This document shows, piece after piece, positions 39,693 to 54,777 of a stretch of 64,000 nt of DNA. The notes under the pieces are model-generated. The model did no database searches. It worked only from the letters and a program-made list of their open reading frames with translations, and had not been told where the DNA came from. The stretch is from Escherichia coli O127:H6 str. E2348/69 (GTDB lineage Bacteria > Pseudomonadota > Gammaproteobacteria > Enterobacterales > Enterobacteriaceae), in NCBI RefSeq assembly GCF_000026545.1, contig NC_011601.1. The stretch is one strand, 5' to 3'. A program made the position numbers and the translations under genes. Every line of letters begins with the position of its first letter. The stretch's first letter is position 1.

Positions 39693-40157
39693 CTAGATTC
39701 GTCTCGCCTGCCAGAAATTTTTCTGCCAATAGACATTATCAAGTGAGGAACGCATCACTCCCTTGCTGGTAGAGGCGTGGATAAATTGGTTGTTGGTATC
39801 GTAAATACCTACATGCAAACCATTTTGTCCGGAACCCGTTTTGAAAAAGACCAGGTCACCTGGCAGCAACTCGTCTTTATCAATTTGCGTGCCAATAGCG
39901 GCTTGTTGTTTGGTTTCACGGGGCAGCTGCAAATCGAAACGATCACGCATCGTCACAACCACAAATCCCGAACAGTCCACACCGCGCCGCGTCATGCCAC
40001 CATAACGATACGGCGTGCCATGCCAGCTTTGTAGCTGGTCGTTCAAACCGGCAATAACGGTGATCGAATCAGAAAGTCTGGCATTTGGCGGCGGTGCTTT
40101 ATGGTGGCTACACCCGGCCAGAAACAGTGCTGTGATCAAAATAAGGCAGAAACGCAT
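39693..40157 (-). CDS. nlpC: NlpC/P60 lipoprotein endopeptidase
   Basis: 154-aa ORF with lipobox LAGCS and Cys-His NlpC/P60 core. Confidence 0.85.
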   Translation of the reverse strand: MRFCLILITALFLAGCSHHKAPPPNARLSDSITVIAGLNDQLQSWHGTPYRYGGMTRRGVDCSGFVVVTMRDRFDLQLPRETKQQAAIGTQIDKDELLPGDLVFFKTGSGQNGLHVGIYDTNNQFIHASTSKGVMRSSLDNVYWQKNFWQARRI

Positions 40158-40234
40158 TCCGTACGGTTCCTCTGTTTTTTATTCTTGCATTAATTTAGCG
40201 TCGTAATTACCCGATTTTCAAGATACTAATGAAA

Positions 40235-40984
40235 TCAGATGGTCGAAATCAGCATTCTGTGACCTTCGATATCCAGACGGCGAAAATTCATCCCATAGGC
40301 CTGCGCCAGATTTGCCGGCGTGAGCACCTCTTCTCTGCGTCCACTGGCCAGCATTTTTCCACCTTTTAGCAACCACGCCCGATGCGCATGACGCAATGTG
40401 TGGTTGAGATCGTGACTGCTCATCACAATCGCCAGTCCTTGCTGACACAGCGCGCTCAGAATTTTGTCTAAGGCGCTTTGTTGCGCAACATCAAGACTGT
40501 TCATCGGCTCATCAAGAAGCAGCAATTGGCCTGCGGGATTGGCTTGTGGTGTGATTTGCAGCACCACCGCAGCAAGACGTACGCGTTGCCATTCACCGCC
40601 GGAAAGTTGATTGGTGCTACGTCCGAGTTTGTCATCAAGAGCCAGCGCCCCTGCGACATCATTCAGTAGTTCGGTACGCGTTTTATCGTGCTGATGCAGT
40701 GTCAGGTAGTGCCAGACCGGCATTGCAAACGGCGGCGTCTGCTGTTGTGAAAGATAGGCGCGATGCAGCGCGAGCTTTGTTGCAGACCATGCTTCCAGTG
40801 GTTGCCCCGCGAACTGAATGCTTCCCTTACCGCTGGTCATTCCGGCCATTCGCGCCAGTAAGGTACTCTTACCCGCGCCATTCGGCCCCACCAGGTGCAG
40901 GATCTCCCCAGCCCGAACCTCGCCAGAAAGCGGCCCCAGGCGGGTAGATTCCGCAACATCCTGTAACTGCATCACAATAGACAT
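40235..40984 (-). CDS. btuD: Vitamin B12 ABC transporter ATPase
   Basis: 249-aa ABC ATPase (GPNGAGKST). Confidence 0.9.
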
Positions 40985-41535
40985 TATTTTGCCAACGCCA
41001 GTTTAATGCTTTCCATCACAATGGGATCTTCCGGCGTCATATCCGGGGAAAAACGCTGGATGACCTTTCCGTCCCTGCCAACTAAAAATTTCTCAAAATT
41101 CCATAAAATATCATCAGGGTACAGCGGTGCACGACCTTTGCTGACCATTCGGGCATAGAATCCGCTCTCTTCCGGCGCGACTGCAGTCGGCGCTGCGGCA
41201 ATCAATTTTTGATACAGCGGATGACGTCCTTCGCCATTAACTTCAATCTTACTGAACATCGGGAACGTCACCCCCCATGTGGTGGTGCAATAAGTTTTAA
41301 TCTCTTCATCGCTACCCGGTTCTTGCTCCAGAAACTGGTTACACGGGAATCCCAGCACCACAAAACCACGATCAGCCCAAGCTTTCTGAATATTCTCCAA
41401 CTGCTCATATTGCGGCGTTAAGCCACACTTTGAGGCGACATTGACAATCAACAGCACATTACCGGCGTACTTCTCTAGCGTGGTCACTTCACCGTCGATA
41501 TCTTTCACTACGGTCGTCAGAATGGAATCTTGCAT
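40984..41535 (-). CDS. btuE: Glutathione peroxidase-family protein BtuE
   Basis: 183-aa ORF. Confidence 0.9.
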
Positions 41536-41596
41536 CGTTTCTCCTGGGTGTGGTCAGTAAAAATCTTAGCTTTTAATCATAGACCGTCTTTTGCGG

Positions 41597-42577
41597 CTAA
41601 CGTCCTGCTTTTAACAATAACCAGATAAACACCGGCGCACCCAACGTTGCGGTGACCACGCCAATTGGCAGCTCTGCGGCAGCTAATGCCAGGCGCGCTA
41701 CAATATCGGCCAGCAGCAATGCGCTCGCCCCTGCCAGCGCGCAGCCGGGAAGTAATACGCGATGATCGGTTAAACCACACAGCCGGAGAATATGTGGGAT
41801 CACCAGACCAATAAAGCCGATAGCACCCGCCAGCGCCACACTGACGCCAACCATCCAGCCGGTCGCTGCCACCAGCACATTGCGCCAGAACCACAGGGGT
41901 AAACCCAGTTGCCGCGCCGAGATCTCGCCAAGTGCTAATATATTCATCGGCCTGGACTGACAACAGATCCACAACAACACGGGGATCAATGCCAGCATCA
42001 GCCAGCTTTGCCGCCAGTCTACGCCGCCAAAACCGCCCATCATCCAGTACATCAGCTGACGTAAATCAACAGAGGTGGAAAAGTAGATAGCCCACGTCAT
42101 TAGTGCGCTACAGATAATCCCTAATGCAACGCCAGCCAGCAATAACCGACTGGTCGAAAGATGACGACGGGCGAAACGTAAGAGTATTAAAGTGATGATA
42201 AGTGCGCCTGCAATCGCACACAGCCCTAGCGCCCAGTTGGGGAGTTGCCCTTGCCCAAGCAATACCGCGGCGATAAGCCCCACGCCTGCGCCGTTAGAGA
42301 CGCCAAGTAGTCCAGGTTCTGCCAGAGGATTTTCAAACAACGCCTGCATTACAGCGCCGGATATAGCCAGCGCCGCACCAACCAGCAATACAGCCAGCGT
42401 ACGTGGCAGGCGAATTTGCCAGACGAACAGTTCGCCACGAGGAGAAAACCAGTCACCTGGCAAAATCCATAGTTCACCGGCGCAAAGGCTTAAGAGAAGC
42501 GCCAGTAGCATCAAAACTGACAAGCATAATAACCAGCGAATATTTTGTCGCTGTTGTTGGCGGGCAAGTGTCAGCAT
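41597..42577 (-). CDS. btuC: Vitamin B12 ABC transporter permease
   Basis: 326-aa polytopic membrane ORF. Confidence 0.9.
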
Positions 42578-42766
42578 GGTATCCGTTCTGCTGAAGTGTC
42601 ATGGCGTTGATTTTACGGTGACTCTTCGACAGTGAAAAGAAAAAAGGCCGCAGAGCGGCCATAAACACAAACAAAAATCAATAAGTTAGATAATTATCAA
42701 AGACTTACAGACACACAAAAACACAGCCAACCACAACAAATAACAGGGATGTGGTCACTTTGTGGA

Positions 42767-43183
42767 TCATTCGCTCCCCTCTTTTTCCTTATTTCGTTGA
42801 ACGCCAATTGCGACACACGTACTAAGCAAATCTTTACATTTCTCTACATCTTCAGACTTACGCAATTTGATGCTTTTTACAGACTGCGGGCTACTGTCCG
42901 TAGCACGATACATCGTTATTTCAATATCATTTCGGTCTAAGAGTCCCATAATGGCTTTTGCAACCTCCACACCCTTCTTCGCGAAATCAAAGAACAGAGC
43001 AAGTTTATATGGATTTTCGACGGAAAAAACTTCAATTTTGCTAAAACCAACATCGTGTAGAGAAAAATATTGCTCAACCTCATCTCGAAGTTCTGGATCG
43101 CATACAATGTCTATTCTCCAGTACTGACCTAAATGCAAATCGCTATTAACTGTTTTTTCCACAACATCCTCCTTACCCAGCAA
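42767..43183 (-). CDS. Hypothetical protein (138 aa), AT-rich, immediately downstream of and overlapping the int stop
   Basis: Complete ORF with acidic/lysine-rich composition; no family recognised. Confidence 0.45.
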   Translation of the reverse strand: MLGKEDVVEKTVNSDLHLGQYWRIDIVCDPELRDEVEQYFSLHDVGFSKIEVFSVENPYKLALFFDFAKKGVEVAKAIMGLLDRNDIEITMYRATDSSPQSVKSIKLRKSEDVEKCKDLLSTCVAIGVQRNKEKEGSE

Positions 43184-44147
43184 TAGGATTAAATCTCACC
43201 GCATCCTGCAAGTAATCCGGCGCAAGATGGGCATAAATCATCGTTGTCTGAATCTTTGCGTGCCCCAGAATTTTCTGGAGCGTCAGAATATTGCCGCCGT
43301 TCATCATGAAATGACTGGCGAAGGTGTGGCGCAGCGCATGAACAGCCTGGCCGTCAGGAACATCAGGTGCGACCGTTTTGATGACATCGCGAACCAATGG
43401 ATAATCCAGCGTCGGAAACACCAGTTTCCCGCCCCGTTTTTTGATCTTTTCAAACAGGCTTTCAGAAATAGGAACGGTACGGTTTTTGCTGTTCTTCGTT
43501 TTTGAAAAAGTGATTCGACAATGAAGAACACGGCGCTGCTCCAGTGCCGCTACCTCGCCCCATCGCGCCCCGGTCGACAGAAGGATTTCGACAGCCAGCC
43601 GTTCATCGGGATTTTCAGCCAGTGCATCCAGCAACTGAACACATTCAGACTTACTCAGATATCCCATTTCGCGCTCGTTAACCTTCATTCCTTTAAGGCC
43701 TTGAACGGGGTTATCGTTAAGAAAATGGCCGGATGAGATGAGTGCGGTAAACATCGCGCTTAACGCCCCAATCTCTCGATTAATGGTGCTGGGCTGTATC
43801 CCCTGCTCTATCCTGGACACACGTAGCTCGGTGAGCATCGTTGTATTAAGTTTATGCACACACGGGTCATCCATTGCCTCACTCAAGCGCAGCAATTTAA
43901 GGCGCGTGTTATGCCCTGACTTCATTAGCTGGCCGTGGTATTTCCACCACAAGTCAATAAGCACCGACAGCGGACGGCGATCAATGGAGTTTCCTTTCCA
44001 CTCATTGTTATGCTGTTGCGCCAGCACCCACCGCTCATATAAAACTGCATCCGATTTCGTTTTAAATTTTTTGCGAATGCGTTTGCCTTTACGCCCCTCA
44101 GGGCGCATGTCAAGAAGATACCCTCCCGGAATTGATTTTATGCTCAT
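43173..44147 (-). CDS. int: Tyrosine integrase (P2 Int-like)
   Basis: Strong similarity to P2 integrase (…EGRKGKRIRKKF…, …LSTGARWGE…, …HALRHTFASHFMMNGGNILTLQKILGH…MIYAH…); start taken at internal Met (MSIKSIPGGY) of the 374-aa ORF. Confidence 0.9.
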   Translation of the reverse strand: MSIKSIPGGYLLDMRPEGRKGKRIRKKFKTKSDAVLYERWVLAQQHNNEWKGNSIDRRPLSVLIDLWWKYHGQLMKSGHNTRLKLLRLSEAMDDPCVHKLNTTMLTELRVSRIEQGIQPSTINREIGALSAMFTALISSGHFLNDNPVQGLKGMKVNEREMGYLSKSECVQLLDALAENPDERLAVEILLSTGARWGEVAALEQRRVLHCRITFSKTKNSKNRTVPISESLFEKIKKRGGKLVFPTLDYPLVRDVIKTVAPDVPDGQAVHALRHTFASHFMMNGGNILTLQKILGHAKIQTTMIYAHLAPDYLQDAVRFNPIAG

Positions 44148-44196
44148 TCGTGAAACCCCAGCGTTACAAGACCACCATGCCCCCAGCGTTCCATGA

Positions 44197-44505
44197 TTAA
44201 CCGGGCTGTGTACCAGTCTTGCGGGATTTTTGAGAAGACGATGTGTTTTCTGGCCCATCAGGGGAGAGAGAGGGACTGATCTGCCCAGCAGCCTCATTTG
44301 TTTTTCCCGTCATAAGCCAATTCATGTACTTAAAAAAGCGAGGGTGATTAACAATCTTGATAAGCACTTCGCCCCCTATGTTTTCAATCCGCCCCGTTTC
44401 ATAACGACGCAAAGTGCCGATAGGCACATCAATCAGGCCGCAAAATTCTTCGCGCGTTAAATCCTCTGATTCACGAATCACTCTAATTTTTTCACCGATA
44501 AGCAT
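44197..44505 (-). CDS. C: Immunity repressor (P2 C-like, HTH)
   Basis: 102-aa ORF divergent from cox, HTH at N-terminus, resembles P2-family C repressors. Confidence 0.75.
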   Translation of the reverse strand: MLIGEKIRVIRESEDLTREEFCGLIDVPIGTLRRYETGRIENIGGEVLIKIVNHPRFFKYMNWLMTGKTNEAAGQISPSLSPDGPENTSSSQKSRKTGTQPG

Positions 44506-44515
44506 TGACAGTGTT

Positions 44516-44563
44516 CCTATAAGTACACTAAGCTTGCGCGCAAGGTGTACTTATAAGTACACC
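44516..44563. promoter_or_regulatory. Candidate operator in the C/cox divergent promoter region
   Basis: tataagtacac half-site followed 16 nt later by the 18-bp perfect palindrome gtgtacttataagtacac. Confidence 0.5.
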
Positions 44564-44601
44564 AAGTCACAAACAACCACAGATAGCGCAGGTTATCACA
44601 C

Positions 44602-44880
44602 ATGGCAAAAGTCCTGAACACACACGAACAGGCAGACTTTGAGCGTTTAGCAGCGTTCTATCCCTACCGCGATGAGCATGGGTTACCAGTACTTGAAGAA
44701 AGCCTGAAAGATTACGCAAAGCGTACCAACCAAGCTGTTAACACAGTGAAAAGACAGGCTGACAGAGGTTCAATTCCCATCAACCAGGATGAAAAGAACT
44801 CAAGACGCACAGTAAATCTCTTCGCTCTTTTCCTGAAAACAATCAGGAGCGCAGAAAAATACGTGCAGATGACAAAATAA
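44602..44880 (+). CDS. cox: Cox/Apl-like excision-directionality and early-promoter regulator (positional call)
   Basis: 92-aa first gene of rightward early operon; weak sequence support. Confidence 0.45.
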   Translation: MAKVLNTHEQADFERLAAFYPYRDEHGLPVLEESLKDYAKRTNQAVNTVKRQADRGSIPINQDEKNSRRTVNLFALFLKTIRSAEKYVQMTK

Positions 44881-49839: not shown

Positions 49840-50799
49840 ATGAAAATTTGTATCGACGACGGCTCCACCAACATCAAGCTGGCATGGACTGAGAACGGCG
49901 AACACCGCAACGCCATCAGCCCGAACAGCTTCAAGTCGGAATGGTCTGCGCCGTTCGGTGGCACGCAGCCCGCGAACTACATGCTTGATGGCGTGCGCTA
50001 TGGTTTTGATCCGGTCAGCGATCGCTTTGTCCAGACGACCGACACGCAATACCAGTACAGCGATGTGAATGTCATTGCCATTCATCATGCGCTGGTCAAA
50101 TCAGGCATCACGCCACAGGAGGTGGATGTGGTTGTCACCCTGCCACTGAGCGAGTATTTCGACACAAACGCACAGCCGGACATGGCCAACATCAACCGCA
50201 AAAAAGCGAACGTTATGCGCCCGGTGGAGTACCAAAACGGCGAGGCATTCACTATCCGTAACGTGCGGGTTATGCCTGAATCCATTCCGGCTGGCTTTAA
50301 AGCACTGGCTGACATGAGTCCGTTTGAATCCCTGCTGATTGTGGATTTGGGCGGAACCACGCTGGATGTGGCAAAGGTTCAGGGGCAACTGGCAGGTATC
50401 AGCCAGGTGTTTTGCGATCCACACGTAGGCGTTTCTCTGATGGCCGATGCCGTGCTGTCGGTGATGGCCACCAACGGTATGCGCACCAGTCACCACATCG
50501 CCAATACCATTATCGAACATCGCCACGATGAAGCCTGGCTGCGCCAGCACATCCACAATGACGCGCATTACGCCAGCCTGATGGCAGTTATTCGTGAAAA
50601 GGAGGAAACACTGAAACAACGCGTGATCCGCGCGCTGGCGGTTTTTTCGGGTTACGGGCGGGTGATGGTTGTCGGTGGAGGGGCGGAGATTGTGGCACCC
50701 GCTATCCGCGAAGCCTGCGGAGTTAATGCGACTTTCATCGCGGACGGGGTGCCACAGTTTGCTCTGGTTAATGGGCTGTACGCAATGGACAAGGAGTAA
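49840..50799 (+). CDS. parM: ParM/StbA-like actin-type partition ATPase
   Basis: IDDGSTNIKL...ISPNSFK...YSDVNVIAIHHAL...RKKANV...VMPESIPAG...DLGGTTLD...VVGGGAE closely parallels plasmid R1 ParM. Confidence 0.85.
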   Translation: MKICIDDGSTNIKLAWTENGEHRNAISPNSFKSEWSAPFGGTQPANYMLDGVRYGFDPVSDRFVQTTDTQYQYSDVNVIAIHHALVKSGITPQEVDVVVTLPLSEYFDTNAQPDMANINRKKANVMRPVEYQNGEAFTIRNVRVMPESIPAGFKALADMSPFESLLIVDLGGTTLDVAKVQGQLAGISQVFCDPHVGVSLMADAVLSVMATNGMRTSHHIANTIIEHRHDEAWLRQHIHNDAHYASLMAVIREKEETLKQRVIRALAVFSGYGRVMVVGGGAEIVAPAIREACGVNATFIADGVPQFALVNGLYAMDKE

Positions 50800-51493: not shown

Positions 51494-52576
51494 ATGGTAA
51501 ACGTGAGGGAGGATGAACTTTTCAAACTCATCGAGCAAGGCATCAAAGGCAACGCAAATGCATTTACACTCCTATGCAGAAAGATGATTAACAACATCCG
51601 TAAAAATGATGAGGCTTTAGCTTCTAAGCTGGCTTCGTTAGTTGCTGAGGGAACAGTATTACGTGGGGCATCTAGTAAGGCTCCTATGCCTGTGGATGGA
51701 GACTCCAGACGAAACCTTTTGCAGGAAACATCTGTCAACGCAATTGTTGAAGAACCTGTATGGAATACGGATATCTCAAAGAAGCTGGAGTCAATTGTTA
51801 ACGAAAGAGAGAATGCGGTTTCTTTGTTCAAAGCTGGTCTTGAACCTGTGAAGACGGTTTTACTTTCTGGCCCGCCAGGCGTAGGCAAAACAATGTCCGC
51901 ACATTGGCTTGCTGCAAAGTTAAATTTACCTCTTTTAACATTGGATCTCTCATCTGTAATGAGTTCTCTTTTGGGAAAAACAGGTAATAATATTAAATCC
52001 GTTATGGATTATGCCAAAGAGAAACCATGTGTCCTTTTGCTTGATGAATTTGATGCTGTTGCAAAAAGACGTGATGATGACAGGGACGTTGGAGAATTAA
52101 AACGTTTAGTTACTGTACTCCTACAGACCATAGATGAGTGGCCAGCGACCTCGCTTCTTGTTGCTGCGACTAATCACCCTGATATCTTAGATCCGGCTGT
52201 TTGGCGTCGATTTGAGCACATCCTTAAATTTAATATGCCATCAGTAGAACTGATAGATAGATATTTAGTCAATCATAATATTGAACCTGAACTATCTAAA
52301 AAACTTGCACCATTATTAGATGGCATGTCCTTTGCCATCATTAACCGTATTTTGAATTTCTCCAAAAAGAATGAGGTACTTAGAAATATTCCATTTGAAA
52401 GCTCATTAATAGAAGCCGTAATTACGGAGAGGGTTTCATTGGATGAGTTTAGCGATAATGATCTCAATATAATTAAATATCATTTTGACGGTTTTTCAAA
52501 TAGGAAGATAGCTGAATTAGTTGGTGTTTCACATCCAACAATCGCGAATAAATTACAAAAGTGGGGGATTAAATGA
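51494..52576 (+). CDS. Classic-clade AAA+ ATPase with C-terminal LuxR/GerE-like HTH (360 aa); candidate defence component
   Basis: Walker A GPPGVGKT (aa 126-133), Walker B LLLDEFD (aa 181-187), sensor-1 ATN, second-region-of-homology-like DILDPAVWRRFEH; C-terminal NRKIAELVGVSHPTIANKLQKWGI HTH. Confidence 0.85.
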   Translation: MVNVREDELFKLIEQGIKGNANAFTLLCRKMINNIRKNDEALASKLASLVAEGTVLRGASSKAPMPVDGDSRRNLLQETSVNAIVEEPVWNTDISKKLESIVNERENAVSLFKAGLEPVKTVLLSGPPGVGKTMSAHWLAAKLNLPLLTLDLSSVMSSLLGKTGNNIKSVMDYAKEKPCVLLLDEFDAVAKRRDDDRDVGELKRLVTVLLQTIDEWPATSLLVAATNHPDILDPAVWRRFEHILKFNMPSVELIDRYLVNHNIEPELSKKLAPLLDGMSFAIINRILNFSKKNEVLRNIPFESSLIEAVITERVSLDEFSDNDLNIIKYHFDGFSNRKIAELVGVSHPTIANKLQKWGIK

Positions 52577-54777
52577 TGGAAAGGAACTTACTTTTAGGTA
52601 ACGGTCATGTTCTGACAAAAAAGGAACCTTTGCCTAAAGGAAGGGATGGTAAGCGCTATCCCTATACTCTTGAAGAAGTAAGGGAGCATTTAAACCCAGA
52701 GATTGATACTTTACTCTCACGCTTTCGCAGTTTGGATGATGCGGCTAAGCCAAGGGGGGAGAGTGTATTCAATTTAACTTTACACCCAGCGTTTTTGGGT
52801 AAAAGCTACTTTCCGGAAGGATTGCTTAGAGCGACAGGTTTACGGGATGTCGGCAGCCGTCAGGTAATCATTCGCCCACGGAAAGCGGCACGTCAGTGCG
52901 ATCAGAATAAGGACTTAGTAACGGCGCAACTGTTTGTTAGCGGTGATGATGATGCCGTTATAAGATTTAAGGAAATTTTAAATTCCCCTACAGCTCCGAA
53001 GGGCGTACAAAAGGATTTGATCGAAATTGAAAGTGTTAGCTTTTTTGAAGGAAAAGAGAGAGCACGCAATTTTGAGCATGCGAAAAGTGATTTGATAAAA
53101 TTTGAAGTGGTTCTTCATGCTGGGGTTGAAGACGATGATATCGTTAAAGCCTATATTAGCTATGCGGCACAATATGATGTCTCTGTTGATTACAAAAGTA
53201 GAATCCAAGTTGGTGGGCTGACTTTCATCGTTGCACACGCGCGACCTGAAGATATGAAAAAAACACTCGATTTTTCATTAATCCGCGTTGTGCGGCCGAT
53301 GCCGTCTCTCAGGTGTACTCAGCCGAACATTGTCAGAAAGTTATCTAATATAGTTACACCGGAGCTCCCTAATTCTAAAGCTGTTCTTGAATCCGAACGT
53401 ATTGCCATTTTTGATGGTGGCTTGGGGACAGCTGACTTGAGTAATTGGGTTACGGAATACGTGTATCCAGACACCAAAGAAACAAGCGGATTATTATTGC
53501 AGCACGGTAATGAAGTGACATCCACTTTCTTATTCGGACGTGTCGAGGAAAATGCACCTTCTTTTAAAAGACCGTTTATGAATGTAGATCATTATAGAGT
53601 TCTTTCACCGACATCAGGTGACAATGGCAATTGGGATTTATTTGATGTCCTTAAGAAAATACAGTCCGTTCTTGATAGTGGTGACTATAAGTTCGCTAAT
53701 CTAAGTATTGGTCCTCATCTTCCAATTGGTGATGATGAGGTTCATGTATGGACTGCTGTTTTAGACCAAATCTGTGCTAAGCATGGGATATTACTTACTG
53801 TTGCTGTTGGGAATGATGGCAATGAGGACGGTGATGCAGCGAGAATACAACCTCCTTCCGATATGGTAAACGCGCTAGCGATTGGTGCTGCTGATCGTAG
53901 CGGTGAAAAATGGGGGCGGGCACCATATAGCTGTATTGGGCCAGGCAGAAGCCCCGGATTCGTTAAACCTGATGGTGTTATTTTTGGTGGAAGCGACGAC
54001 GAGCCTTTTTACACTTACAACCCTCTGCTTGGTTCTATAGTTGGAGTTCAAGGAACCAGTTATGCCTCTCCATTAGCATTGAGAACGGCCGCTGGAGTTG
54101 CGGCTCTATCAGGAACTCCATTGAACACCATTGCATTGAAAGCGTTGCTTGTTCATCATGCTGAAACATCAAGAAAATATTCGCGTGAACATATCGGTTG
54201 GGGACGGTTTAGTGAGGATCCTAACGTTTTAATCGATTGTCCAAATGATACTGCTACAGTAATTTACTATGGTTCATTAGCAAAAAATAAATATTTAAGG
54301 GCACCGATCCCATTCCCTGATGTTCCCTTTGACGAAGCATTTGAGCTTACCGCTACTTTATGCATTCAAACCCCAGTAGATCCTGAACATTCAGTAAACT
54401 ATACAAGGGCCGGTATGCAGGTAACTTTCCGCCCAAGATTCGGCCTTGACGATACCGATACAGATGATTTCTTTGGTCAAAAAAGCCAGTATAAGACTGA
54501 AAGGGAGTGTAGGAGTGAAGGTCATAAGTGGGAAACTTGTTTGCACAGAAGCAAAAAGTTCAGTGCTGATACATTATTAAGCGATCCAGTTTTTGATATA
54601 CGGTATCATGCCCGAGATTCTTCGCGCCATGTTAAGGGAGTTTCAGCCCCTGATATGCAATATGCGATGGTAATAAGCGTAAGGGTAAAAGACTTTGATT
54701 TATATAATGTTATTCGCCAGCGATATACAATTCTGAATCCTATTCAACTGCGCACACAAATTTCTCTCGACACGTAA
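52573..54777 (+). CDS. Subtilisin-like (S8) serine peptidase, 734 aa, no signal peptide; candidate defence effector
   Basis: Catalytic order D-H-N-S: IAIFDGG (D281), HGNEVTS (H311), VAVGNDG (N414), GTSYASPLA (S496); ~270-aa N-terminal and ~230-aa C-terminal regions unassigned; start overlaps ATPase stop (ATGA). Confidence 0.85.
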   Translation: MMERNLLLGNGHVLTKKEPLPKGRDGKRYPYTLEEVREHLNPEIDTLLSRFRSLDDAAKPRGESVFNLTLHPAFLGKSYFPEGLLRATGLRDVGSRQVIIRPRKAARQCDQNKDLVTAQLFVSGDDDAVIRFKEILNSPTAPKGVQKDLIEIESVSFFEGKERARNFEHAKSDLIKFEVVLHAGVEDDDIVKAYISYAAQYDVSVDYKSRIQVGGLTFIVAHARPEDMKKTLDFSLIRVVRPMPSLRCTQPNIVRKLSNIVTPELPNSKAVLESERIAIFDGGLGTADLSNWVTEYVYPDTKETSGLLLQHGNEVTSTFLFGRVEENAPSFKRPFMNVDHYRVLSPTSGDNGNWDLFDVLKKIQSVLDSGDYKFANLSIGPHLPIGDDEVHVWTAVLDQICAKHGILLTVAVGNDGNEDGDAARIQPPSDMVNALAIGAADRSGEKWGRAPYSCIGPGRSPGFVKPDGVIFGGSDDEPFYTYNPLLGSIVGVQGTSYASPLALRTAAGVAALSGTPLNTIALKALLVHHAETSRKYSREHIGWGRFSEDPNVLIDCPNDTATVIYYGSLAKNKYLRAPIPFPDVPFDEAFELTATLCIQTPVDPEHSVNYTRAGMQVTFRPRFGLDDTDTDDFFGQKSQYKTERECRSEGHKWETCLHRSKKFSADTLLSDPVFDIRYHARDSSRHVKGVSAPDMQYAMVISVRVKDFDLYNVIRQRYTILNPIQLRTQISLDT

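Follow-up and report, generated by a model that had tools for sequence, protein, structure and literature searches.

The gene considered here, orf131, lies at one end of a P2-like prophage of ~36.4 kb that is inserted between btuC and ihfA in Escherichia coli O127:H6 strain E2348/69; in K-12, btuC is directly followed by ihfA-pheT-pheS. The analysis covered a 64,000-nucleotide (nt) stretch of contig NC_011601.1 (referred to below as the window), in which the host genes nlpC, btuD, btuE, and btuC occupy 39693..42577, all on the minus strand, and prophage DNA begins at 42661. The prophage carries int, C, cox-like, gpA, portal, capsid, lysis, tail, D, and ogr genes, and orf131 sits between the 3' end of int and attL, among the following features:

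41597..42577, minus strand: btuC, the host gene flanking attL (open reading frame [ORF], homology, annotation, and comparison with K-12).
42636..42660, no strand: attL core AAAGAAAAAAGGCCGCAGAGCGGCC, 25 bp (overlap of the K-12 homology; duplicated at attR, beyond the end of the window).
42636..42660, minus strand: intrinsic terminator, GGCCGCTCTGCGGCC plus TTTTTTCTTT (terminator scan; the ihfA terminator in K-12).
42750..42769, plus strand: predicted P2-type Int arm-site repeats of the P' arm, TGTGGTCA at 42750-42757 and TGTGGATCA at 42761-42769.
42771..43185, no strand: exchangeable cassette, comprising the last few int codons, the int stop, the Shine-Dalgarno sequence, and orf131 (homology breakpoints against the sister loci L015, L016, and L017).
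43168..43175, minus strand: TAAGGAGG, the int stop plus the Shine-Dalgarno sequence (read from the sequence; TAAGG(A/T)G is conserved at the homologous E. coli and Salmonella loci).
43173..44147, minus strand: int, P2-type tyrosine integrase, 324 amino acids (aa) as annotated (Int_N and Phage_integrase domains, PHROG, and the Prokaryotic Genome Annotation Pipeline [PGAP]).
44197..44505, minus strand: C-type immunity repressor with a helix-turn-helix (HTH), 102 aa, the first gene of the presumed lysogenic operon (ORF, Pfam, PGAP).

The coding span of orf131 is 42767..43162 on the minus strand (131 aa, GTG start, TGA stop, WP_000416304.1, phrog_14142). The first-pass annotation had described an AT-rich ORF of 138 codons between int and attL, with a composition unlike that of its neighbors and an 11-nt overlap with the int stop. 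Such an ORF was found (42767..43183, minus strand, TTG start), and at 39.4% the GC content of orf131 is about 10 points lower than that of the flanks (int, 49.4%; btuC, 54.8%; prophage part of the window, 51.5%). The overlap, however, is an artifact that arises when the first in-frame start codon, a TTG, is taken. A consensus Shine-Dalgarno sequence, AAGGAGG (43174..43168), overlaps the int stop TAA (43175..43173) and is spaced 5 nt from the in-frame GTG at 43162; the junction reads ...ATT GCT GGG TAA GGAGG ATGTT GTG GAA AAA..., leaving a gap of 10 nt and no overlap between the int stop and the orf131 start. GTG 43162 is the true start given this spacing, the phrog_14142 profile, which begins at residue 8 of the 138-aa ORF, the PGAP model (42767..43162, WP_000416304.1), and the alignment of the homologs, all of which start at the GTG-equivalent codon and read M-E/K-K-T, with ATG in Salmonella. 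The profile start, the PGAP annotation, and the homolog starts rule out TTG 43183.

orf131 is a genuine conserved gene under purifying selection. A search of a 5.8-billion-protein index returned E. coli and Salmonella homologs with 60 to 98% identity, all of 131 to 132 aa, and an exhaustive profile scan of 1.84 billion representatives added just a handful of distant members. A profile that included the distant members gathered 69 clusters of 126- to 138-aa proteins, all from Enterobacterales (including Salmonella, Citrobacter, Enterobacter, Klebsiella oxytoca, Raoultella, Yersinia, Pectobacterium, Kosakonia, and Pantoea), all labeled hypothetical, and none with a Pfam domain. Length and start codon are kept over 30 to 98% identity and across many genera. 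The ratio of nonsynonymous to synonymous substitution rates (dN/dS, Nei-Gojobori) was 0.19 in two comparisons, one with an E. coli copy of 77% identity (dS, 0.66) and one with a Salmonella copy of 62% identity, and it ranged from 0.19 to 0.22 across comparisons with dS values of 0.66 to 1.7. Invariant or near-invariant residues comprise H10, F33, the block A68-x-x-I-M-G-L, R77, D79, and E81, and the invariant family motifs are IMGLLNRNDIEIE and DVxxCExL. The first-pass annotation had named a lack of conservation in any related element, together with a lack of expression evidence, as what would refute its reading; conservation was checked and found. Its remark that no family could be recognized held for Pfam, NCBIfam, and PADLOC and failed for PHROGs (v4), in which residues 8 to 135 of the ORF match positions 1 to 128 of the 128-position phrog_14142 profile (E value, 8.6e-70). 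orf131 is thus a full-length member of a family that carries no annotation, so that membership is silent on function. Shorter products of 57 to 67 aa from E. coli, Salmonella, Klebsiella, and Pantoea (P0080-P0090), for which the called start is the Met inside the IMGLL motif, correspond to the C-terminal half of the family and are probably truncated gene remnants.

The exact orf131 protein was seen on no fewer than 1000 contigs, and no source gives it a name; a literature search found no paper naming WP_000416304, phrog_14142, or A0A0B0XRU7. Among 5426 complete E. coli genomes, 158 (~3%) carry the gene, each in one copy, always on the chromosome and always at the btuC junction. The carriers include enteropathogenic E. 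coli (EPEC) E2348/69, O26:H11 11368, O111:H- 11128, O55:H7 CB9615, and O104:H4, and also commensal, animal, and environmental isolates. Searches with megablast and tblastn found no match to orf131 in 50,697 GenBank phage records or 72,556 plasmids, and the distant members P0073 and P0061 had no match among the same phage records. All 35 family loci in IMG/VR lie at prophage edges.

The interval that holds orf131 has different occupants in closely related prophages. The int lineage of this prophage was represented by 305 E. coli genomes, of which 158 carried orf131; in 86 others the interval between int and the P' arm held a pair of genes for proteins of 120 and 145 aa (cassette B), and in ~39 it held a gene for a 166-aa protein together with a gene for a 145-aa DUF1640/CCDC90-like coiled-coil protein, or the latter alone (cassette C or D). 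Homology between the window and three sister loci (L015, L016, and L017) ends at 42770-42774 and restarts at 43186, with 98 to 99% identity on both sides. In total, prophages with 98 to 99% identical int genes at the same btuC/ihfA site contained three or more different cassettes between the same breakpoints. The alternative occupants (L015, 726..1522; L016, 710..1748; L017, 710..1147) begin 2 nt after int on the same strand, and their first genes encode mutually related CxxC...CxxC zinc-ribbon proteins of 120 or 166 aa. No confident PADLOC model and no known defense family matched the proteins of these cassettes, and remote homology between orf131 and the first gene of an alternative cassette was rejected (hhalign probability, 0.1%). 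The zinc-ribbon and coiled-coil cassettes share with orf131 their breakpoints, strand, and uncharacterized status and differ from it as two-gene systems of unrelated sequence. Because unrelated cassettes occupy the same breakpoints in sister prophages, orf131 is swappable prophage cargo.

This cargo is placed with precision relative to the attachment site. The att core lies about 106 to 107 bp from the orf131 stop; it was defined as the overlap obtained when the empty K-12 site was aligned to both prophage junctions, occurs exactly twice in the E2348/69 sequence across the insertion, where it bounds the ~36.4 kb, and makes up the GC hairpin in the ihfA terminator, which is bidirectional. The arm sites of P2-type Int proteins consist of direct repeats, for which the consensus is tgTGGaCa (PMC3448106). 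The annotated P' arm of P2 (two copies of TGTGGACA) begins at a distance of 89 bp from the attP core and reaches into the 3' end of int, without a gene separating the two; in this prophage similar repeats, TGTGGTCA and TGTGGATCA, lie 11 bp apart, start 90 bp from the core, and overlap the TGA stop codon of orf131 with the second copy. Arm-type repeats are also kept downstream of the Salmonella homolog. By their sequence and placement, the two repeats appear to be the Int-binding P' arm. The left breakpoint of the cassette falls immediately after them; the cassette thus fills exactly the space that separates the P' arm from the 3' end of int, and the geometry of attP is left untouched. The first-pass statement that P2 has no gene between int and att was correct.

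Several further observations concern the same region. A 16-nt direct repeat, TAAACACAAACAAAAA / TACAGACACACAAAAA, lies between the att core and the P' arm (42662..42677 and 42706..42721, 44 bp apart); P2 has Cox-binding sites in the corresponding stretch, and by analogy the repeat may possibly represent Cox/Apl boxes. In K-12, the ihfA-btuC intergenic region (L002, 3154..3312; compared with window positions 42578..42701, minus strand) matches the Rfam family STnc540 with 67.4 bits, well over the gathering score of 38. The terminator hairpin at the center of the STnc540 model is the att core, and attL of the lysogen keeps only a 22.5-bit fragment; integration of the prophage thus splits the STnc540 small RNA region yet duplicates its hairpin. 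An Rfam scan of 42400..44700 detected no RNA family in the cassette, and its only hit was the subthreshold STnc540 fragment at the att site. One survey of P2-like viruses, from 2026, lists a "BtuC permease" as a phage auxiliary metabolic gene (PMC13100340); because btuC is a host gene just outside attL of a common P2-like prophage, this call is probably a prophage-boundary artifact. The mechanical ORF of int (43173..44297, minus strand) comprises 374 aa, and the PGAP and homolog starts (44147) give 311 to 324 aa; the extra 50 codons, which reach into the C-int spacer and the end of C, are probably untranslated.

Across the wider family, the position of the gene relative to the attachment site is retained, and its neighbors change. 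The E. coli and Salmonella copies invariably begin 10 nt behind int. Members of a distant branch occupy the opposite end of the prophage, where they adjoin the host junction as the outermost gene and read inward: the order is a ketoacyl synthase gene, the orf131 homolog, and then ogr and D in the opposite orientation; in K. oxytoca, it is yccJ, the homolog, and ogr in the opposite orientation; in Yersinia (L056), it is mlaA, the homolog, and then hok/gef and ogr in the opposite orientation; and in Citrobacter and Salmonella, raiA and the homolog are followed by a variable gap and then by tail spike and fiber genes. Upstream of the distant copies lie, in order, TCCACA-type repeats, a hairpin, a Shine-Dalgarno sequence, and an ATG. 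One distant copy is flanked by an insertion sequence (IS), and intact copies were also found beside partial prophage ends. On the circular phage map, the family always falls in the interval from int to ogr, in the direction of int and just outside one attP arm. Between the window and variant loci, identity was 82 to 88% for int, 62 to 77% for orf131, and 53 to 60% for C; orf131 has thus diverged along with int, implying a long linkage to int in the E. coli-Salmonella lineage, although the gene is replaceable.

The neighborhoods of these loci contain additional small cargo. Beyond the window, at the attR end of the E2348/69 prophage, ogr and attR are separated by a hok/gef toxin gene (L003, 4887..5027), and ogr and D are separated by a hypothetical gene for a 221-aa protein (L003, 5628..6293). 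When the map is drawn as a circle, hok and orf131 point toward each other from the two sides of attP, and the same order of orf131 homolog, hok, and ogr is seen in Yersinia L056. In an IMG/VR prophage (L045, 651..2123, minus strand), the distant orf131 homolog is immediately followed by an ATPase that matches the PADLOC candidate-defense model HEC-04 (E value, 3e-204); this slot is variable and holds other small genes or no called gene in L012, L047, and L049.

The lysogenic operon of P2 contains C and int and is transcribed from the promoter Pc (PMC3936717). In this prophage, C (44197..44505), int, and orf131 are co-oriented, and a consensus-based scan detected no terminator-like site between them. 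The terminator scan identified the att-core hairpin as the sole minus-strand site from 44700 to the btuC gene, and a second terminator-like site on that strand lies within btuC (42553..42534). Only 23 bp of cassette-specific DNA precede the orf131 start, so that any promoter of its own must lie in conserved int sequence; a consensus-based promoter scan found no minus-strand site upstream of orf131, and as the same scan misses Pc, this result is weak evidence. Because there is no room for a promoter, a strong Shine-Dalgarno sequence overlaps the int stop, and no terminator precedes the one in the att core, orf131 is most likely the third cistron of a lysogenic operon, Pc-C-int-orf131. The transcript would run from Pc through C, int, and orf131 to the terminator, orf131 would be translated independently and efficiently from its strong Shine-Dalgarno sequence, and the product would be made in lysogens and early after infection. 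The first-pass annotation had considered cotranscription with int likely; the idea is retained, since no terminator intervenes and a private promoter would have no room, but its original basis, the overlap of the two genes, gives way to a 10-nt gap.

The same annotation had likened the ORF to a moron or accessory gene at a prophage end. Replacement in sister prophages, absence from P2, and low GC content agree with this description. As in lambdoid morons, an extra gene with a GC content 10 points lower lies between neighbors that are adjacent in relatives. Lambdoid morons, however, have a private promoter and terminator, whereas orf131 has neither and probably rides the int transcript to the att-core terminator. 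orf131 is an ordinary kind of prophage accessory gene, that is, P2-like hotspot cargo of an unannotated family. The int-att hotspot of P2-like phages (bioRxiv 10.64898/2026.02.27.708500) is the same place, inside the element between int and att, and the attP hotspots of P2-like phages show the same behavior, with closely related elements that differ in their contents; cargo between int and att has also been reported in phage-inducible chromosomal islands, an analogous case. The two hotspot preprints (the second being bioRxiv 10.1101/2024.10.15.618418) count recognized defense systems, and orf131 and its allelic cassettes match none of these.

Function cannot be read from homology. The protein (15 kDa; pI, 5.15, within a family range of 5.1 to 9.4) is predicted to be cytoplasmic and has no predicted transmembrane segment, signal peptide, or secretion-related domain. 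Pfam and NCBIfam scans assigned no family (the single NCBIfam line, ribosomal protein L23 with an E value of 0.14, was noise), PADLOC-DB 2.0 returned 0 families at an E value of ≤10, and a profile search of PDB sequences gave a best E value of ≥0.27. A test for an excisionase or recombination directionality factor (RDF) found no HTH, excisionase, or other DNA-binding domain, and a test for a type II toxin-antitoxin system found that the cassette contains orf131 alone and that neither Pfam nor PADLOC gives a match. AlphaFold2 (AF2) models (pLDDT, 75 to 78; pTM, 0.70 to 0.72) predicted a compact beta-alpha-beta-beta-alpha-beta-beta-alpha-beta sandwich with disordered termini and without a catalytic motif, which as modeled would be a generic alpha/beta sandwich. 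Foldseek searches of the model against PDB and BFVD found nothing at an E value of ≤1e-3. A weak fold resemblance to ACT/PII/CutA-like ferredoxin-fold domains covered ~75 of 131 residues at 3 to 12% identity, with scores in the generic-fold range, and is not evidence of homology.

We favor, with a probability of roughly 40%, the reading that orf131 encodes a factor expressed in lysogens, which works through binding when the prophage competes with other phages or satellites. The protein would serve the lysogen or its prophage in conflicts with other mobile elements and might, for instance, exclude superinfecting phages or satellites, and the modeled fold suggests that, as a small alpha/beta-sandwich protein, it would probably act through binding of a target rather than through catalysis. 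The kind of locus and the kind of protein both point to such a role, which is preferred because cargo hotspots of P2-like phages are dominated by functions in phage-phage conflict. The int-att interval holds 3% of the recognized P2 defense systems (bioRxiv 10.64898/2026.02.27.708500), a third hotspot of P2 is bounded by a tail gene and CI (bioRxiv 10.1101/2024.10.15.618418), and more than one-third of the cloned systems from P2/P4 hotspots were antiviral (PMC9122126). Furthermore, three findings were counted for a conflict role: the position of a distant homolog beside the HEC-04 ATPase in a variable slot; the persistence of intact copies by partial or IS-flanked prophage ends; and the compact AF2 model, which lacks a transmembrane segment, signal peptide, and catalytic motif. 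A narrower version of this reading is more doubtful: phrog_14142 would be a new single-protein immunity factor that binds a protein of a superinfecting phage or of a P4-type satellite, and the interval between int and the P' arm would be a dedicated promoter-less plug-in slot, with the zinc-ribbon and coiled-coil cassettes as alternative alleles.

P2 excludes lambda, T-even phages, and T5 by means of its genes old, tin, and fun(Z). Like orf131, these genes are nonessential, AT-rich prophage cargo that is expressed in the lysogen, as is probable for orf131 also. They differ from it in occupying other map positions (the gpA-portal and tail hotspots) and in having their own promoters (old-tin mRNA starts are annotated), and they share no sequence similarity with it. 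In this prophage, the gpA-portal slot contains genes for an AAA ATPase (51494..52576, plus strand) and an S8 peptidase (52573..54777, plus strand) that match the PADLOC models IetA (E value, 3.6e-89) and IetS (E value, 6.6e-41); by these matches, the pair is an IetAS defense system in the classical P2 old/tin hotspot. Just after gpA are genes annotated as a ParM-like segregation ATPase (49840..50799, plus strand) and "plasmid partitioning/stability" (50804..51115, plus strand), an unusual cargo for an integrating P2-like phage.

Two other roles are unlikely, each to a similar degree, and survive better than the remaining ones. In the first, orf131 would encode a counter-defense protein, a small binder or sponge that is made from Pc after infection and in the lysogen and that shields the P2-like genome from host immunity such as restriction or CBASS/Thoeris-type signaling. 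P2 Pc is active on infection, which fits this timing, and a small, domain-less, narrowly distributed protein whose fold lacks close neighbors has the usual profile of anti-defense proteins; the weak fold resemblance to ligand-binding ACT/PII/CutA-like domains points the same way. However, no more than 28 P2-like elements in a large survey had known anti-defense genes, none of the 50,697 GenBank phage records, virulent phages included, contains a member of the family, and intact copies are kept beside degraded prophage ends. The family pI range of 5.1 to 9.4 also argues against a conserved DNA mimic and rules out a DNA-mimic anti-restriction protein in particular.

In the second, orf131 would encode a host-directed lysogenic-conversion factor that alters bacterial physiology or virulence rather than the outcome of phage conflict. 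The many pathogenic carriers (EPEC E2348/69, O26:H11 11368, O111, O55:H7 CB9615, and O104:H4) and the placement of the gene for expression in the lysogen are consistent with this role, but commensal, animal, and environmental isolates carry orf131 too, homologs occur in plant-associated and environmental Pectobacterium, Kosakonia, and Pantoea, and the protein is without a signal peptide, transmembrane segment, or secretion-related domain.

It is quite improbable that orf131 encodes an accessory regulator of phage lysogeny, integration, or excision, acting at attP/attL or on Int, Cox, or integration host factor (IHF). The family always adjoins attP on the circular map, just beyond the arm sites and with the orientation of int, and in the E. 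coli-Salmonella lineage it has diverged in company with int and C, as would be expected of such a regulator. Nevertheless, unrelated genes replace orf131 beside int genes that are 98 to 99% identical and arm and core sites that are identical, P2 functions without any such gene, and the protein has no HTH, excisionase, or DNA-binding signature and no conserved pI. A role as an Int cofactor or RDF was rejected because the cassette is replaced next to identical int and att sequences, and against an excisionase/RDF identity there is also the Cox-like gene already present at 44602..44880. Phage 186 tum lies near attP, and a Tum-like antirepressor was considered and rejected: no DinI-like Pfam match was obtained, and an antirepressor within the lysogenic operon would be self-defeating. 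Finally, a spurious or decaying ORF without function, which the lack of a domain, the label hypothetical in every source, and the truncated 57-aa remnants in some genomes might suggest, is refuted for practical purposes by the low dN/dS (0.19 to 0.22), the conserved length and start, the invariant motifs, the strong Shine-Dalgarno sequence, and the presence on at least 1000 contigs.

The practical value of the analysis lies in the corrected gene model and the exact boundaries of the cassette and of att. This type of slot had already been flagged by two recent preprints, and surprise among specialists would need a phenotype. If orf131 encodes an exclusion or counter-defense factor, a very small effector without a recognizable domain would be added to the cargo repertoire of P2-like phages. 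Under the same condition, the int-attP junction would be shown to be a promoter-less expression slot driven by the lysogenic promoter, and orf131 would provide a clean and easily cloned test case.
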